Virus record (IMG/VR): IMGVR_UViG_3300020057_000029
Span: 91,224-155,223 of that record
Reading direction: 5' to 3' (one strand)
From: a virus
DNA: 64,000 nucleotides
This document shows positions 9,174 through 30,226 of this stretch, piece after piece; the first letter of the stretch is position 1, and every line of letters begins with the position of its first letter. The notes under the pieces are model-generated. The model was given only the letters and a program-made list of their open reading frames with translations. It ran no database searches and was not told the DNA's origin. Made by a program: the position numbers and the translations under genes.

Positions 9174-10946
9174 ATGTCATTTCGCAAGGCAAAAAGCGCA
9201 CCTAAAATTTTTGAAGTAAACCCTAGTAGGCTCAGGAATAAGGTTTTAAGCACTATGCACCGTGTTTCCGAAGCGGTTGGCTCAACTATGGGTCCAGGCG
9301 GTAGAAACGTATTGATTGAATCAGACTTTCCAGGTATTCCTAACAAAAACACCAAAGACGGAGTGACTGTTTTTAAGAGCCTTGGTGCTATTGACCCATA
9401 CGAACATCTTATCATAGAACAAGCCCGTGATGTGGCTCAACGTACTGCTACTGAAGCTGGCGATGGTACTACCACGGCAACCGTGCTCGCGTACAATATC
9501 ATCTCTAATTTATTCGAATTCTGTGAAAAAAACAAGAAGTACAGTCCTCAAAAAGCTGCTCGTCGCATCGCTAAAATAACACGCGAACGCCTTGTCCCTT
9601 ATATCAAAGAGCGCAGTATCCCTGTTGGAGTAGACAATCAAGAATTACTCAAAATGGTAGCCAAGGTATCCGCCAATGGCGATGAAGACATGGCGGCTGC
9701 TGTAATTAAGGCCTTTGAAGAAATTGGATACGGAGACGCCTCTCACGTAACAATCCGAGAACTATCAGGCCCTCAAGGCTATAAAGTCGAACGTATCGAC
9801 GGATTCCCCATTCCTGCTGGCTATGAAGAGTCTATTGGCAAATTTCACACTGCCTTTATTAATGACCAAGCAAATCAACGTTGTTTTCTTGAGAACCCCC
9901 TGTTTATCCTGTTTGACGGTCAGGTAAACGATCTCATGGCGTTCCACGATCTTCTAGACGTTCTTGGTAAAAAATACGTAGAAGACGGCGACAGTGATTA
10001 TAAAAACGTTGTAATCGTAGCTCATGGTTTTTCTGAAAACGTGCTCACAAATCTTGCTTTCAACTTCTCAAACCCCTCTACCCTGAACGTTGTGCCCCTG
10101 GTTACCCCAATGGCTCAATTCATCAATAGCCAGCTTCAGTTTCTGCAGGATTTAGCCGCTTTTACCGGCTCTCGCGTATTCGGCATGAAAGATCAGATCA
10201 ATACTGCTACTATTGCCGATTTAGGCGGCAGCATGGAATCTTTTGAGTGCTATCGTTTTCGCTCCACTGTGATTGGTGATCCAGACCCAACCAATATTGA
10301 GGTTCGTGCTGAAGAGCTTAGAATCATGAAAGATCGTTCTGAAAGTCAAGCTGAGAAGATCTTCTTAGAAGAGCGTATTGGTAAGATCACTAACGGTATT
10401 GCTAAATTAACCATTTACGGCGGATCTAACGGCGAGCTCAAAGAAGCGCACGATCGCTGCGAAGACGCGGTATGTGCGGTTCGTTCTGCAATTTCTCACG
10501 GTGCTCTACCAGGTGGATGTCGTATTGCCCTAGACATGACAATGCTGCTTATGACCGAACTAGAAGCAGGTGACCCAGCCCGTGACGTTTTAGTGCCTTC
10601 TTTGTTAAGCCTACATCACAAACTGCTCGACAATGCTGGATATACTCCAGCCGAATCTAAAGAAGTTTTGGAAATCCTTTTGAACGATCCTTCTATCGTA
10701 TATGACATTGAGAATCAGGTTTACGGTGACGCAAAAGAATTAGGCCTGTTCGATGCTACAAAGGCTGTACAAGAGTCCTTGTCAAACGCAGTATCTCTTG
10801 CGAATGTGCTTGGAACAATGGGCGGCTTAGTATGTCATCCTCGTGATGATGTTTTTGAACGGACAGAGGCTAGAGCAGATGCTGACTTTGGCCGTGTAAC
10901 CTCCAACCCAAATGCGTACGTTAATGAAGCTAATAATCGCCCATAA
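9174..10946 (+). CDS. groEL: GroEL-like chaperonin
   Basis: TMGPGGRNV, TKDGVTV, GDGTTTATVLA, RCEDA, PGGC; lacks the GGM tail; AGGAG RBS. Confidence 0.95.
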   Translation: MSFRKAKSAPKIFEVNPSRLRNKVLSTMHRVSEAVGSTMGPGGRNVLIESDFPGIPNKNTKDGVTVFKSLGAIDPYEHLIIEQARDVAQRTATEAGDGTTTATVLAYNIISNLFEFCEKNKKYSPQKAARRIAKITRERLVPYIKERSIPVGVDNQELLKMVAKVSANGDEDMAAAVIKAFEEIGYGDASHVTIRELSGPQGYKVERIDGFPIPAGYEESIGKFHTAFINDQANQRCFLENPLFILFDGQVNDLMAFHDLLDVLGKKYVEDGDSDYKNVVIVAHGFSENVLTNLAFNFSNPSTLNVVPLVTPMAQFINSQLQFLQDLAAFTGSRVFGMKDQINTATIADLGGSMESFECYRFRSTVIGDPDPTNIEVRAEELRIMKDRSESQAEKIFLEERIGKITNGIAKLTIYGGSNGELKEAHDRCEDAVCAVRSAISHGALPGGCRIALDMTMLLMTELEAGDPARDVLVPSLLSLHHKLLDNAGYTPAESKEVLEILLNDPSIVYDIENQVYGDAKELGLFDATKAVQESLSNAVSLANVLGTMGGLVCHPRDDVFERTEARADADFGRVTSNPNAYVNEANNRP

Positions 10947-12556: not shown

Positions 12557-13366
12557 ATGATCAATTTTAAAGACTTACCTCCTGAAGAGAAAAAAGCCTT
12601 AGCGGAAGAAATGTTCAAACCTCTTGAGTCAGCTGACAAACTAAGAGAATGGATCGTATTCTTCTTTGGTCTTGACATGCCAATTGGACATATTGATCCA
12701 GATTCGAATTCCAGTCCAATTGAGGCAATGTGGGAGATCTACTCCTGTATTAAAGAAAATAAAGGTGAAGATAATCCTGGTTACATCATGCTTTCGGCGC
12801 GGGAAGGTTATAAAACGCTTTCTGCCTCCATTCTAGAAACCCTTCTTTTGGTACATTTCAGACTAACCATCGCTCACCTGGCAGCGATTCAGGCCCAGTC
12901 TGCTAAGGCTATTCAGTATATCAATTTCTTTTTCAACAAAATCCAACCTCTTTTGGAAGTATCGGGTTGGTCTAAAACCAGTGAAAACAAGAGTAAGGTA
13001 AGCTTTCGTACAAAAGAAGGCGATGACGCTTACATTCGCGTAATTGTGGCCACGATGGCTGGCGCTAACTGTATAGATCCTGCTATGGTGCTTGATACAG
13101 ACAGGGGCAATATTTCCGCTCAAGAAGTATATGATTTGGTCAGAAACAATGAATGCGTAATGGTCCTGTCTTTTAACCATAAAACAAATGAGTTGGAATA
13201 TAAAGAAGTCACCCACACATTCGACTCTATCAAAACTTTAGTCACGATAGAATTAGAAAATGGGTCAATTATCAAATGTTCTCCTGAACACAGGTTTTAC
13301 ATAGAAGGCAAGGGCTATATGGAGGCCAAGGATTTGACTGAAGAGGATTATTTAAGTGTCAAATAG
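12557..13366 (+). CDS. terL: terminase large subunit N-fragment fused to split-intein N-half
   Basis: Walker A-like SAREGYKT; intein block A CIDPAMVL at 13070, block B IKCSPEHRFY; ends EAKDLTEEDYL then stop. Confidence 0.88.
   Translation: MINFKDLPPEEKKALAEEMFKPLESADKLREWIVFFFGLDMPIGHIDPDSNSSPIEAMWEIYSCIKENKGEDNPGYIMLSAREGYKTLSASILETLLLVHFRLTIAHLAAIQAQSAKAIQYINFFFNKIQPLLEVSGWSKTSENKSKVSFRTKEGDDAYIRVIVATMAGANCIDPAMVLDTDRGNISAQEVYDLVRNNECVMVLSFNHKTNELEYKEVTHTFDSIKTLVTIELENGSIIKCSPEHRFYIEGKGYMEAKDLTEEDYLSVK
13070..13363 (+). mobile_element. split intein N-half (98 aa)
   Basis: Cys1; block B His; typical IntN C-terminal EAKDL motif. Confidence 0.88.
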
Positions 13367-13542
13367 ACCGACAAGACATGACCTAGAGTTTGCGAGGGCG
13401 TCGGTGCGCAAAACAGTCTTGTAAGAAAAAGAGCTTGCTGATCAAAGGCGCTACAGGAAACACAGGGACAGAGATGGCCTTATCTTTAGGGTATGACCGC
13501 ATCTGGGACTGTGGAAAAATAAGATGGGAGATTTTCTTGTGA
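13356..13542 (+). pseudogene. internally deleted Hef-like endonuclease relic between the intein halves
   Basis: 13411-13542 reads KQSCKKKSLLIKGATGNTGTEMALSLGYDRIWDCGKIRWEIFL*, closely matching the C-termini of the 10962 and 28523 genes; probable old start GTG at 13356 with GAGGA RBS. Confidence 0.85.
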
Positions 13543-13652
13543 AAAAAGTAAAGATAAAAAGTATTAAAAGGTCAAACGTAGAGGTTCCAATGTTGGACTT
13601 TACCGTTGCTGATAACCACAACTACTTTGTGGAGCAGGCGCTTACTCACAAT
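13539..13652 (+). mobile_element. split intein C-half (38 aa)
   Basis: Basic N-terminus, block F DFTVADNHNYF, terminal HN followed by Ser+1. Confidence 0.88.
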
Positions 13653-15005
13653 TCTGAGCATACAAACATGATGTTCGTAGACGAAATCGACGTGGTGGCA
13701 AATCCTCAAGCCTATGAAGAGGCTAAGCTCATTCCTGGTTATGCTAAGGGATTACATCCGGTTACCGTGAAGCTATCTACTCGTAAATTTGCATTTGGAC
13801 TCATGCAGAAGGAACTTGACCTGGCTCCAATATCAGGTGATAAGATTCTTAGGTGGAATCTTTTAGATGTTACGGAGCGTTGCCCTGATAGTCGCCATAG
13901 GCCAAATGAGCCAAAAGAAGACCGGTATGTAGCAAAAGCCTTGCCTCTAAAACAGATGAGTGTAGAAGACTACTCAGATCTACAAGATGTGGAAAAGGAC
14001 AAGTTCGACCTCATTCCGCAAGCCCATGCTGGATGCTCCAGTTGCAAACTCTTGCCGGTATGCAAGACCAGGCTAGCAGCTCGTCCAGCCAATGATGTTG
14101 GCGGCTTGTTTAAGCCCGTAGGCGCTGTGATTAACACTTTTAAGAAGACCGGCCCTGATCGCGCAGAGGCACAGCTTCTTTGCTGGAAGCCATCCACTAA
14201 AGGAATGGTGTACCCTCGCTTTGAGTCCACACTCGATACCGGCAACGTGATCAGTCTTGAAAAAGCCTGGGAAACCCTTGTTGGTGATCCTCCTCATAAA
14301 AAGAAGATTTCAGAAGCCGATCTTCTTTGGAAGATGCAGCAGCTTGGAATTGCATTCTACGCTGGAGTGGACTGGGGTTATACTCACGATTTCGTAATCG
14401 TTGTTTTTGCCATAATCCCTAATGGTGAAATATGGATTGTAGACTGTTATTCAATGGCCGGTCTAGAATTTTCTGACATCTTGGAAATCGCTAAAGACTA
14501 TCGCGATAAGTACCGTATGGATAAATGGTGGTGTGACCAGGCTATGCCTGCGAATATCAAATCTTTTAACAAGAACCATATGAAATCTCCTTCTTTCACC
14601 AAAGATGTTATGGGTGGAATTGAATCTTTGCGTTCTAAGATCTTAGATGGTAACAGCAGGCGTTTGCTTAAGGTTTTTAATACGGAAAACTGTGAAAAAG
14701 TAATTACAGCCTTTCAAAAACACCATTTCAAGCTAGACAGTGCGGGTAACCCTTCTCTTATCCCAGATGATACCCCTGGGGTCGCAGATAGCGCCGATGC
14801 TATGCGTTACGTTGGCCAAAACATGTTTCCTATCCGTGGACCCCAGAAACCCAGTATGGCCGCTGACGCTACTGGGAATACTGCTGTAATGGTTCAGAAT
14901 GTCGAAAATTCCGAGCTGATGAAGCAGGAGCTATTAAACAGGTTAGAGGGAACAGCTTTTAAGGGCGGGACGGGCAAAAAAGGTGGGTTTCATTTTAACT
15001 TCTGA
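13539..15005 (+). CDS. terL: split-intein C-half fused to terminase large subunit C-fragment (Walker B + RNase H-like nuclease)
   Basis: GTG at 13539 with GGGAG RBS; IntC KKVKIKSIKR...LDFTVADNHNYF...THN|S; then MFVDEID, AGVDWGY, DSADAMRY. Confidence 0.88.
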   Translation: MKKVKIKSIKRSNVEVPMLDFTVADNHNYFVEQALTHNSEHTNMMFVDEIDVVANPQAYEEAKLIPGYAKGLHPVTVKLSTRKFAFGLMQKELDLAPISGDKILRWNLLDVTERCPDSRHRPNEPKEDRYVAKALPLKQMSVEDYSDLQDVEKDKFDLIPQAHAGCSSCKLLPVCKTRLAARPANDVGGLFKPVGAVINTFKKTGPDRAEAQLLCWKPSTKGMVYPRFESTLDTGNVISLEKAWETLVGDPPHKKKISEADLLWKMQQLGIAFYAGVDWGYTHDFVIVVFAIIPNGEIWIVDCYSMAGLEFSDILEIAKDYRDKYRMDKWWCDQAMPANIKSFNKNHMKSPSFTKDVMGGIESLRSKILDGNSRRLLKVFNTENCEKVITAFQKHHFKLDSAGNPSLIPDDTPGVADSADAMRYVGQNMFPIRGPQKPSMAADATGNTAVMVQNVENSELMKQELLNRLEGTAFKGGTGKKGGFHFNF

Positions 15006-28522: not shown

Positions 28523-30226
28523 ATGAAGGATAAAATATCAGAACTGTATAAAAAAGGTGTGAAAACATCAGATATAGCCATGGTTCTAAGGAAAACGCCT
28601 CAAAGAATTAATCAAGTGCTGATAGAGCTTGGCTTAAAGCAAAAAACGTTTGACTATTCGCCAAAAATAACTGCTATCATTGCTGAAAGCATTCTTGCTT
28701 TTAATAGAGATGGTCTGACCGTAACTGAAATATCAAAAAGGGTTGATCTAACAACCACTGGAATCAGAAATTTTCTTAAAAAACGTAGTATTTCAACAAA
28801 CGCATCCAAAGAAGACAGGTCTAGGCCTTGTGTTGTTTGTAAATTAGTGTTCACTCCGAAACACTCAGATGGGGTGAAAAAAAACAAATACAAGACTTGC
28901 TCTGTCGAATGTCGCTCTAAGCACGCTAGTGAATACAGAACGAAATATACAAAAGATGATATCGATAAGGTTTTAGAGCTAAAAAAGGCCAATACTGCCA
29001 ATGATGAGATTTGCCTGGCAACAGGGGTAAATATAAATAAGATCAAAGAGGTGATCAAAGAAAATGCCTTGTTTTTGGACCCAAAAGTGGCTCAAAAGAA
29101 TGCTTATGAAGCTAAGCTAAAAAAGAATACTCGTTCTATGGAAGAGATGCGAGCTTATTACGGAAAAATAGCCGTATCAGAAGAAAGTCTTGAAAAAACA
29201 AAAACAATTCTTTTGGAAAGGGGTTTTGAATATATAGATGGTTTTGAGGGCAAAAGCAATCCTTTTAAAATCAAATGTCTAGTCTGCAATAATATCAGAA
29301 CTACACATAGGATAAACAATGTGGTCAAAAACGCCTGTATGTTCTGTTCTGGATGTAAAAAAACTTCCAAAGCCGAAATAGAAATTGGGGCATGGGTAAA
29401 CTCTTTAAAGATAAAGGCTGAAAAATTCAAGTTTGAATACCGAAAAGATGGTGGCGAAATAGATGTTTTTGTTCCCCTTGTAAAGGTGGGAATAGAATAC
29501 TGTGGTCTTTATTGGCATAACGAAAATAGCCCAACCTCAAGAGGGGTGGATTATCATTTCAACAAAATGAAAAAGGCTAACAAAGAAGGTATTCGCCTAA
29601 TAACCATTTTCGAAGACGAATGGCTCAATAAAAAAGATCAAATTAAAGGATTTTTACGATCTGTTCTTAATAAAAATGAAATAAGGCTTTTTGCCAGAAA
29701 AACAGATTTGAGAGAGGTGCCTAAAAAAGAGGCCTCTCTTTTCTTAGAGGAAAATCATATCCAGGGTTCTTCTCAAATCGAATCGGCTTTTGGCCTTTAT
29801 TACAACGAAGAGCTTGTTGGTATTGTAACTGGCAACAAACATCACAGACAGGGAATGAAAAATCAATTCATACTGAATCGATTGGCCTTTAAAACAAACG
29901 TAAGTGTGGCTGGTGGTTCGTCTCGGCTTCTTAAGGCGCTAATTGGTTATGCTAAAAAGAATGGCTATTTAAAACTAGTCTCGTGGTCAGACAATAGGTG
30001 GTCCGAAGGTAATGTTTACGAAAAACTAGGGTTTGTATTGGAAGAAACCCTTGGCCCAGACTATTCTTACGTAGTTGGCCAAAAAAGAATCTCCAAGCAA
30101 TCTTGTACCAAGGAAAACTTGCTCAAAAAAGGAGCCATTGGTAACACAGAAAAAGAAATGGCCCTCAGTTTAGGATATAGCAGAATATGGGATTGTGGCA
30201 AAAAACGCTGGACCTTCGCCTTGTAG
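28523..30226 (+). CDS. Hef-like homing endonuclease, second copy (HTH/Zn-finger N-terminus)
   Basis: EIDVF...GIEYCGLYWH; C-terminal half highly similar to the 10962 gene. Confidence 0.8.
   Translation: MKDKISELYKKGVKTSDIAMVLRKTPQRINQVLIELGLKQKTFDYSPKITAIIAESILAFNRDGLTVTEISKRVDLTTTGIRNFLKKRSISTNASKEDRSRPCVVCKLVFTPKHSDGVKKNKYKTCSVECRSKHASEYRTKYTKDDIDKVLELKKANTANDEICLATGVNINKIKEVIKENALFLDPKVAQKNAYEAKLKKNTRSMEEMRAYYGKIAVSEESLEKTKTILLERGFEYIDGFEGKSNPFKIKCLVCNNIRTTHRINNVVKNACMFCSGCKKTSKAEIEIGAWVNSLKIKAEKFKFEYRKDGGEIDVFVPLVKVGIEYCGLYWHNENSPTSRGVDYHFNKMKKANKEGIRLITIFEDEWLNKKDQIKGFLRSVLNKNEIRLFARKTDLREVPKKEASLFLEENHIQGSSQIESAFGLYYNEELVGIVTGNKHHRQGMKNQFILNRLAFKTNVSVAGGSSRLLKALIGYAKKNGYLKLVSWSDNRWSEGNVYEKLGFVLEETLGPDYSYVVGQKRISKQSCTKENLLKKGAIGNTEKEMALSLGYSRIWDCGKKRWTFAL

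Follow-up and report, generated by a model that had tools for sequence, protein, structure and literature searches.

Two adjacent half-genes for a phage terminase

The stretch of DNA described here (the window, 64,000 nucleotides) comprises bases 91224-155223 of the 155,223-bp IMG/VR viral contig IMGVR_UViG_3300020057_000029, which derives from an uncultured phage, and it holds a gene for the large subunit of the terminase (terL) that is divided into two adjacent half-genes. Genes 1 and 2 are co-oriented and lie at one locus in their original order, in different reading frames, and each possesses one part of an intein, an N-terminal part (IntN) at the end of gene 1 and a C-terminal part (IntC) at the start of gene 2. 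An open reading frame (ORF) in the gap between them occupies the third frame (Table 1). IntC ends in the residues T-H-N, followed by Ser+1. Taken together with the comparisons presented here, this arrangement very probably represents a genuine fractured terL gene, the two products of which are predicted from their sequence to be spliced into a single chain by a split intein after translation.

A natural split intein that fractures terL had been proposed in an original prediction made from the nucleotide sequence alone. This proposal is borne out by the exact co-linearity of the parts with intact terL genes, by the full set of class 1 residues, by the recurrence of the split in other datasets and by the placement of the site in an AlphaFold2 model. 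The positions of ORFs and motifs likewise agree with the 98-residue IntN, beginning with a Cys at 13070 and including a block B His, with which gene 1 had been said to end.

Table 1 Features of the divided terL locus and of the endonuclease-like gene upstream, in window coordinates (aa, amino acids; nt, nucleotides)
Feature	Position	Strand	Evidence or remarks
Gene 1	12557-13366	+	269 aa ORF; N-extein and IntN
Gene 2	13524-15005	+	493 aa from first ATG; IntC and C-extein
terL N-extein, 171 aa	12557-13069	+	tblastn of aa 2-171 against contiguous TerLs of 15 IMG/VR relatives and Mx1, ending at the junction
Deviant Walker A, SAREGYKT	12794-12817	+	In N-extein
IntN, 98 aa	13070-13366	+	TIGR01445, PF14890 and NrdJ-1 matches; stop TAG at 13364-13366
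Cys1 codon, TGT	13070-13072	+	Directly after N-extein residue 171
Block B, S-P-E-H	13280-13291	+	IntN positions 71-74; His is position 74
Spacer between half-genes, 157 nt	13367-13523	+	Three-frame translation; stops in all three frames
Endonuclease gene remnant	13387-13542	+	phrog_3339 match; its TGA overlaps GTG 13539 (GTGA)
IntC, 43 aa from ATG 13524 or 38 aa from GTG 13539	13524-13652	+	PF14890 positions 121-155
terL C-extein, 450 aa, from Ser+1 (nt 13653)	13653-15005	+	tblastn; PF17289 (Terminase_6C) and PHROG TerL families
Walker B, MMFVDE	13668-13685	+	In C-extein; RNaseH-like nuclease is C-terminal
Intact endonuclease-like gene, 477 aa	10962-12395	+	Between chaperonin gene and terL; phrog_559, phrog_3339

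The two intein segments together resemble a complete class 1 intein

When compared with intein profiles, IntN matched TIGR01445 (intein_Nterm) at 28.9 bits, against a cut-off of 24.5, and PF14890 matched the genomic stretch at 37.9 bits, again over its cut-off, with profile positions 4-94 matched by the N segment and positions 121-155 by the C segment. The best match of IntN to a protein of solved structure was to the naturally split NrdJ-1 intein (8ubs, E = 7e-9); comparison of IntC, and of the exteins, with PDB sequences gave nothing significant. Judged by the TIGR01445, PF14890 and NrdJ-1 scores, the resemblance to inteins is far beyond chance.

The expected catalytic residues are all present: Cys1, His74 in block B, Asp25 and His32 in block F, His42, Asn43 and Ser+1. 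We compared them with those of related public proteins, which are given here by their P numbers. These residues, of which His42 is the penultimate and Asn43 the terminal one of the intein, are all conserved in the comparison, which took in three N-halves and ten C-halves. Cys1 is also found in P0002, P0003 and P0004, the block B His is kept in other alleles (CSKEH, CSPEH), and the residues that are invariant in the ten aligned C-halves comprise D25, F26, V28, N31, H32, N33, Y34, F35, L40, T41, H42, N43 and S44.

Joined together, IntN and IntC make up 141 residues, which can be aligned over their whole length with the contiguous mini-inteins that occupy this site in the TerLs P0219 (141 aa, within a TerL of 765 aa) and P0009 (137 aa). 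The break between the two segments falls in a loop that carries inserts in P0117, P0183 and P0014 and is, by this alignment, the canonical endonuclease-insertion and split site of inteins. The segments are, in addition, complementary in charge (net charge of IntN, -9; of the IntC segment before block F, KKVKIKSIKR, +4), as was described for split inteins by Dassa, London, Stoddard, Schueler-Furman and Pietrokovski in 2009 (PMC2677866). A nucleophile, blocks B, F and G, profile matches and a restored host protein can all be recognised at the locus, and at the level of sequence they identify its product as a class 1 intein.

The intein site lies within the ATPase core of TerL

We ran the four parts of the locus as separate tblastn queries against relatives. 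In 15 of 15 relatives and in Myxococcus phage Mx1, all of which lack an intein here, N-extein residue 171 and C-extein residue 1 were found on adjacent codons of one contiguous terL. The junctions in these genes read G(A or M)N/S(A, E or L)H (the slash marking the splice junction), and an alignment of 44 TerL sequences shows no variation at N170 or H173 and conservation of at least 90% at S171. Since S171 is conserved and the junction codons adjoin one another in intein-less relatives, Ser+1 is the native TerL residue, and precise excision would yield ...VATMAGAN/SEHTNMMFVDEID... The junction that had been predicted, AGAN/SEHTN, is the one recovered in this way. The split was also correctly placed between the Walker A motif, which is in gene 1, and the Walker B motif, which is in gene 2: the insertion site precedes the Walker B stretch, MMFVDE, by six residues.

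A structural view of the site was provided by an AlphaFold2 model of the contiguous TerL of a relative, L007 (616 aa), generated from the 44-sequence alignment with a mean predicted local distance difference test score (pLDDT) of 84; this is a protein about 65% identical to that of the window, and not the window's own spliced product. In the Walker A region of the model, a strand (residues 74-79) is followed by S79, R81, K85 and T86 and then by a helix. These four residues are invariant in the 44 TerLs, and the strand-to-helix segment is that expected of a P-loop. Further along, a strand (156-163) is followed by a short turn (166-169, with G168 and N170) and then by the Walker B strand (176-180), which ends in the invariant pair D180-E181. 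In this model the insertion site occupies the turn by which a core beta-strand is connected to the strand of Walker B. The top matches of the model in Foldseek were full-length large terminases, namely those of D6E (5.6e-14), T4 gp17 (2.4e-12) and HK97 (8.4e-11), and the homologue in Mx1 is annotated as TerL. The host protein is a terminase large subunit with an ATPase and an RNaseH-like nuclease.

Neither half is a complete ATPase, and gene 2 holds the nuclease (PF17289). The genome (a linear, metagenome-assembled IMG/VR contig of 155,223 bp, CheckV 96% complete) possesses a single terL. Because neither half makes up a complete ATPase and there is no other terL, packaging would be expected to depend on the joining of the two halves.

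The start of gene 2

Several codons could serve as the start of gene 2. ATG 13524 would give an IntC of 43 residues and has a weak ribosome-binding site, GTG 13539 would give one of 38 residues and has GGGAG 8 nt upstream, and ATG 13590, which corresponds to the public gene call P0008 (471 aa), would give one of 21 residues and has AGAGG 5 nt upstream. Other genes here use AGGAG at about 7 nt, and one of them has a GTG start. The residues KKVKIKSI, which precede Met23, are shared with P0114 and P0137, I11 and I14 are invariant among C-halves, and P0114 has a Met where the window has GTG 13539. Because residues preceding Met23 are conserved in other C-halves, a start at ATG 13590 is unlikely, and the sequence comparison favours 13539 or 13524. 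Of the IntC originally described as 38 residues long and ending in HN/S, the ending is as stated, and the length is a reasonable figure to which 43 residues is the alternative.

A decayed endonuclease gene between the halves

Although the original prediction had cited the pattern in which a free-standing endonuclease gene lies between the halves, only the last 51 codons of such a gene remain at this locus. Neither this remnant nor an intact paralogue upstream of terL had been mentioned. The ORF in the gap (13387-13539) corresponds to the C terminus of phrog_3339, "homing endonuclease" (E = 6.9e-9), and its product is 52% identical to residues 424-475 of that encoded by the intact gene. Between the remnant and the intact gene there is no similarity at the DNA level. 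A protein match of this kind without DNA-level similarity points to an old, separate copy, and a recent copy of the intact gene was ruled out on the same grounds.

The last codons of the remnant contain the GGGAG Shine-Dalgarno site of the C-half gene, and its stop codon overlaps the candidate GTG start in the sequence GTGA, an arrangement that suggests that the remnant has been kept as the initiation region of the essential C-half gene. A hairpin such as Dassa et al. describe upstream of endonuclease genes was sought in the 157-nt gap, where the RNA fold was no better than that of shuffled sequences (z = -0.44); promoters and terminators were not above chance in the gap either. Read-through or frameshifting to produce a contiguous intein was ruled out by the several different stops present in every frame.

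The intact gene upstream matches phrog_559 (E = 1.1e-101) and phrog_3339 (E = 1.5e-90), which PHROG labels as homing or HNH endonucleases. It is absent from this position in 11 of the 11 relatives that have a complete chaperonin gene upstream of terL, and a further paralogue of it lies at 28523-30226. When a 30-sequence profile was aligned with Escherichia coli Vsr in hhalign, the invariant residues D36, E47, W53 and H54 fell on D51, F62, W68 and H69 (probability 7%, E = 0.005). A Glu at the position of Vsr Phe62 is the hallmark of the Vsr-like homing family according to Dassa et al. (PMC2677866), and on this pattern the intact gene is likely to encode a member of that family; comparison of its product with PDB sequences found nothing significant. 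The C-terminal 180 residues were modelled as a GNAT/Mom-like fold (pLDDT 95; VIA Z 14.6, root-mean-square deviation 2.6 over 135 residues), for which the top Foldseek match was Mu Mom (8bv8).

The architecture of this protein is unusual in bringing together three CapR/DUF723-type zinc-ribbon repeats, a Vsr-like core and the C-terminal GNAT/Mom-like domain. The endonuclease-like family, which ends in an invariant IWDCGKKRW, has a wide distribution among IMG/VR phages (44 loci). Other phage contigs also have short C-terminal pieces of it in intergenic positions (L117:32-274 and L118:3001-3114), and decayed tails of this endonuclease family appear to be common.

Split alleles recur in other metagenomes

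Additional halves were found in Logan, JGI and ENA assemblies. Two further N-halves, P0002 (269 aa) and P0003 (277 aa), each have an IntN of 99 residues with the same end point. Their N-exteins are 81% and 48% identical to that of the window, respectively, and their IntNs 45% and 47% identical, the IntN alleles overall being only 40-47% identical. C-halves were more numerous: besides that of the window there are ten of full length (492-522 aa) and a fragment, which begin with an IntC of up to 45 residues followed by HN/SEH. One of these C-halves, P0114, begins MGIPFMKKVKIKSI and shares 80% identity with the window over a stretch that takes in IntC and the first part of the C-extein. Since the C-half P0137 and the N-half P0003 have the same longest contig (5372 nt, Logan) and the same source, they probably lie on one contig. 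Five contigs carried members of the protein cluster to which the product of gene 1 belongs. Across these alleles the intein parts diverge faster than the exteins, while the catalytic residues stay fixed.

Searches for the allele of the window itself gave little. The DNA pattern for ATMAGANC had no matches in IMG/VR and 49 in JGI contigs, all of them chance matches without TerL similarity, and a word search with IntC residues 1-50 returned only the window's own protein. As independent datasets hold equivalent N-halves and C-halves, we conclude from sequence comparison that the locus is very unlikely to be an assembly artefact.

Intein alleles at the TerL site

A survey of the site, which covered the retrieved public proteins, revealed at least 20 proteins with inteins of 383-417 residues, both of the scanned ones holding LAGLIDADG domains, together with five proteins that have mini-inteins of 137-198 residues and 126 proteins in which the site is empty. 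A second TerL intein site, seven residues downstream (...M/C.DE), is occupied by at least 14 inteins. This second site (...HTN.M/C.DE, Cys+1) lies directly at the Walker B strand and is used in P0012, P0016, P0017, P0022, P0033, P0052 and others, of which P0052 looks like a split C-half and has a zinc-ribbon-like N-terminal extension.

Two groups can be told apart by charge among the split IntCs at the first site, one basic (the window, P0114 and P0137) and one acidic, the latter, with net charges of -5 to -8, comprising P0011, P0191, P0201, P0210, P0211, P0212, P0217 and P0086. N-half partners for the C-halves with an acidic IntC were not found among the retrieved proteins. The basic and acidic lineages, opposite in IntC charge, could be mutually orthogonal Ser+1 trans-splicing pairs within the same extein context. 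Two wider readings, that the locus is a frozen intermediate of endonuclease-gene loss and that two mutually orthogonal Ser+1 lineages of opposite charge exist, are put forward tentatively, and we think them rather doubtful.

Proposed history and alternative explanations

From this anatomy we infer that the halves associate and splice, that packaging depends on splicing, and that events took place in the following order. An ancestral class 1 mini-intein would have resided in the ATPase core of TerL, at ...GAN/S.H..., and a free-standing Vsr-like homing-endonuclease gene would then have invaded it at the usual endonuclease-insertion loop to generate a split intein. A later deletion of about 1.3 kb of the endonuclease gene would have left its last 51 codons, which were probably retained because the downstream half-gene has its ribosome-binding site and its start within them. 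The locus would now give rise to two proteins, N-extein-IntN (269 aa, with Walker A) and IntC-C-extein (about 488-493 aa, with Walker B and the nuclease). IntN, which is acidic, may pair with the basic strand at the N-terminus of IntC to complete the HINT fold, whereupon an N-S acyl shift at Cys1, trans-esterification to Ser+1, cyclisation of Asn43 and an O-N shift would yield a full-length TerL of 621 residues with the native sequence AGANSEHTN.

A number of observations speak against this account. Each half-protein, taken alone, is under the Pfam gathering threshold for PF14890; block B has a Ser in place of the Thr usual in most inteins; and gene 2 has more than one candidate start, of which the one in the public call, ATG 13590, leaves a 21-residue IntC that would lack the pairing strand.

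The halves might instead assemble non-covalently, with the intein parts serving as a dimerisation module only and TerL working as a two-chain enzyme. Homing endonucleases can fracture genes with non-covalent products, as in the case of NrdA of Aeh1 (PMC2677866). However, the residues required for splicing only are invariant across diverged alleles (IntNs 40-47% identical), which is not expected of a docking module, and, left unspliced, a HINT domain of 141 residues would stay lodged beside the Walker B strand. We consider this alternative improbable.

Slightly less probable still is that the locus reflects an error of assembly or sequencing, or a dead allele; the actual phage would then possess an intact terL or a mini-intein in one piece, and the stop, the shifts of frame and the gap would be products of misassembly or of a defective genome. 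The metagenomic origin of the contig would fit such an error, as would the lack of other copies of the window's allele, by DNA pattern, in IMG/VR or JGI contigs. Yet the gap is not random sequence, being a recognisable tail of a homing-endonuclease gene in the third frame, and in independent datasets (Logan, JGI and ENA) N-halves stop at the same position of the intein and C-halves start with an IntC of 42-45 residues. The occurrence of the gene 1 protein cluster on five contigs, and of intact, syntenic structural genes nearby, also argues against an error.

The least probable possibility is that the split intein is real but now splices inefficiently, the phage persisting with reduced fitness or with the help of co-infecting relatives that complement it: selfish elements can persist awhile though harmful, and the block B Ser and the uncertain translation start of the C-half are in keeping with poor splicing, but terL is essential and single-copy, and the presence of the same split across lineages whose exteins are down to 48% identical implies long survival under selection.

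Genome context

The packaging and head genes of the phage resemble those of Mx1, with TerL identity to Mx1 of 33-35%. The gene order chaperonin, terL, 314-aa gene, portal is common to about 15 uncultured relatives, with which the surrounding structural genes, all intact, are syntenic. The chaperonin gene, of Cpn60/GroEL type, lies at 9174-10946 of the window, directly upstream of the packaging genes, and its product is kept at 69-76% identity in all relatives whose loci extend to it.

A second intein was observed in the same phage, outside the window. This intein is contiguous, has a LAGLIDADG domain and lies inside a DnaE-type DNA polymerase III alpha subunit of 1586 residues, the other domains of which are PHP, pol3 alpha, finger and HHH (G000:C1, about 79,800-84,600, minus strand; L074:1815-6575).

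Relation to known fractured genes and split inteins

The fractured genes described by Dassa et al. are split inteins, mostly in phages, whose halves flank a free-standing endonuclease gene of the GIY-YIG or Vsr-like type and comprise an IntN of 88-105 residues and an IntC of 33-54 residues (PMC2677866). The window locus is like them, and like gp41-7 especially, in having two adjacent co-oriented genes, a split at the endonuclease-insertion loop, complementary charge and a likely association with the Vsr-like family. The gp41-7 locus has no endonuclease gene, and such loss is step III of the model of Dassa et al. (PMC2677866). Because gp41-7 too is without one, an endonuclease gene between the halves can be regarded as typical of fractured genes and not obligatory. 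In contrast to gp41-7, the endonuclease gene of the window seems to have been caught mid-loss, its last 51 codons running into the start of the C-half. The related intact gene of the window also differs from the endonucleases associated with the Dassa loci in its additional C-terminal GNAT/Mom-like domain. A terminase locus is included in the same survey (PMC2677866), but that one is atypically split, with a C part of 122 residues, whereas the terL of the window is split canonically.

Terminases are a common target of inteins (PMC4760082), and the split inteins of terminases that have been characterised include GOS-TerL, AceL-TerL and the consensus Cat-TerL (reviewed in PMC11766414). Like the window intein, these rebuild the large terminase of a phage and are natural split inteins, but their split is atypical, an IntN of 25-37 residues being paired with an IntC of 104-115, and they have Cys+1, in contrast to the 98 + 38/43 residues and Ser+1 of the window. 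Its canonical split and Ser+1 place the window intein outside the GOS-TerL, AceL-TerL and Cat group. The contiguous TerL inteins at the same site (P0010, P0031, P0219 and P0009) share the pattern GAN/C...HN/S.H and a homologous HINT domain; unlike the products of genes 1 and 2, they are single polypeptides that would splice in cis, and the large ones have an in-frame LAGLIDADG domain and not a free-standing Vsr-like gene. NrdJ-1 (PDB 8ubs, 9omb), which also derives from a fractured phage gene, matches IntN over residues 7-97 at about 29% identity (counted from the HMMER midline), its extein being a ribonucleotide reductase as opposed to a terminase. As this identity is low, cross-reactivity with NrdJ-1 is not predictable.

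The intact endonuclease-like protein can likewise be set beside the EDxHD or Vsr-like homing endonucleases, such as I-Bth0305I and Hef (PMC3239194). The two appear to share the D, E and W-H pattern (at an hhalign probability of 7%), an N-terminal DNA-binding region, a free-standing gene and mobility in phages. The window's protein departs from the EDxHD family in having CapR/DUF723 zinc ribbons, not NUMOD/HTH, at the N-terminus and a GNAT/Mom-like domain after the nuclease core.

In the literature searched, coverage of which was incomplete, we found no description of a canonically split TerL intein with Ser+1. The layout of a fractured terminase has been known since 2009, and the window is a clean further example of it. 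The locus stands out for its decaying endonuclease gene, for a terminase intein that is split canonically and followed by Ser+1, and for the family of natural pairs related to it.

Implications

While the window locus leaves knowledge of how split inteins work unchanged, it adds, for protein engineering, a few canonical split inteins (98 + 38-43 residues) that form a family with Cys1 and Ser+1 and are distantly related to NrdJ-1. From its sequence, the window intein is a plausible new orthogonal tool intein, and the existence of two charge classes makes these alleles candidates for new orthogonal ligation pairs. With regard to evolution, one site in TerL documents the whole life cycle of an intein, through alleles that bear LAGLIDADG domains, mini-inteins, split inteins and empty sites, and the locus would appear to catch the step of endonuclease loss proposed by Dassa et al. 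midway. If splicing occurs, this Mx1-like phage relies on protein trans-splicing for its sole packaging motor.

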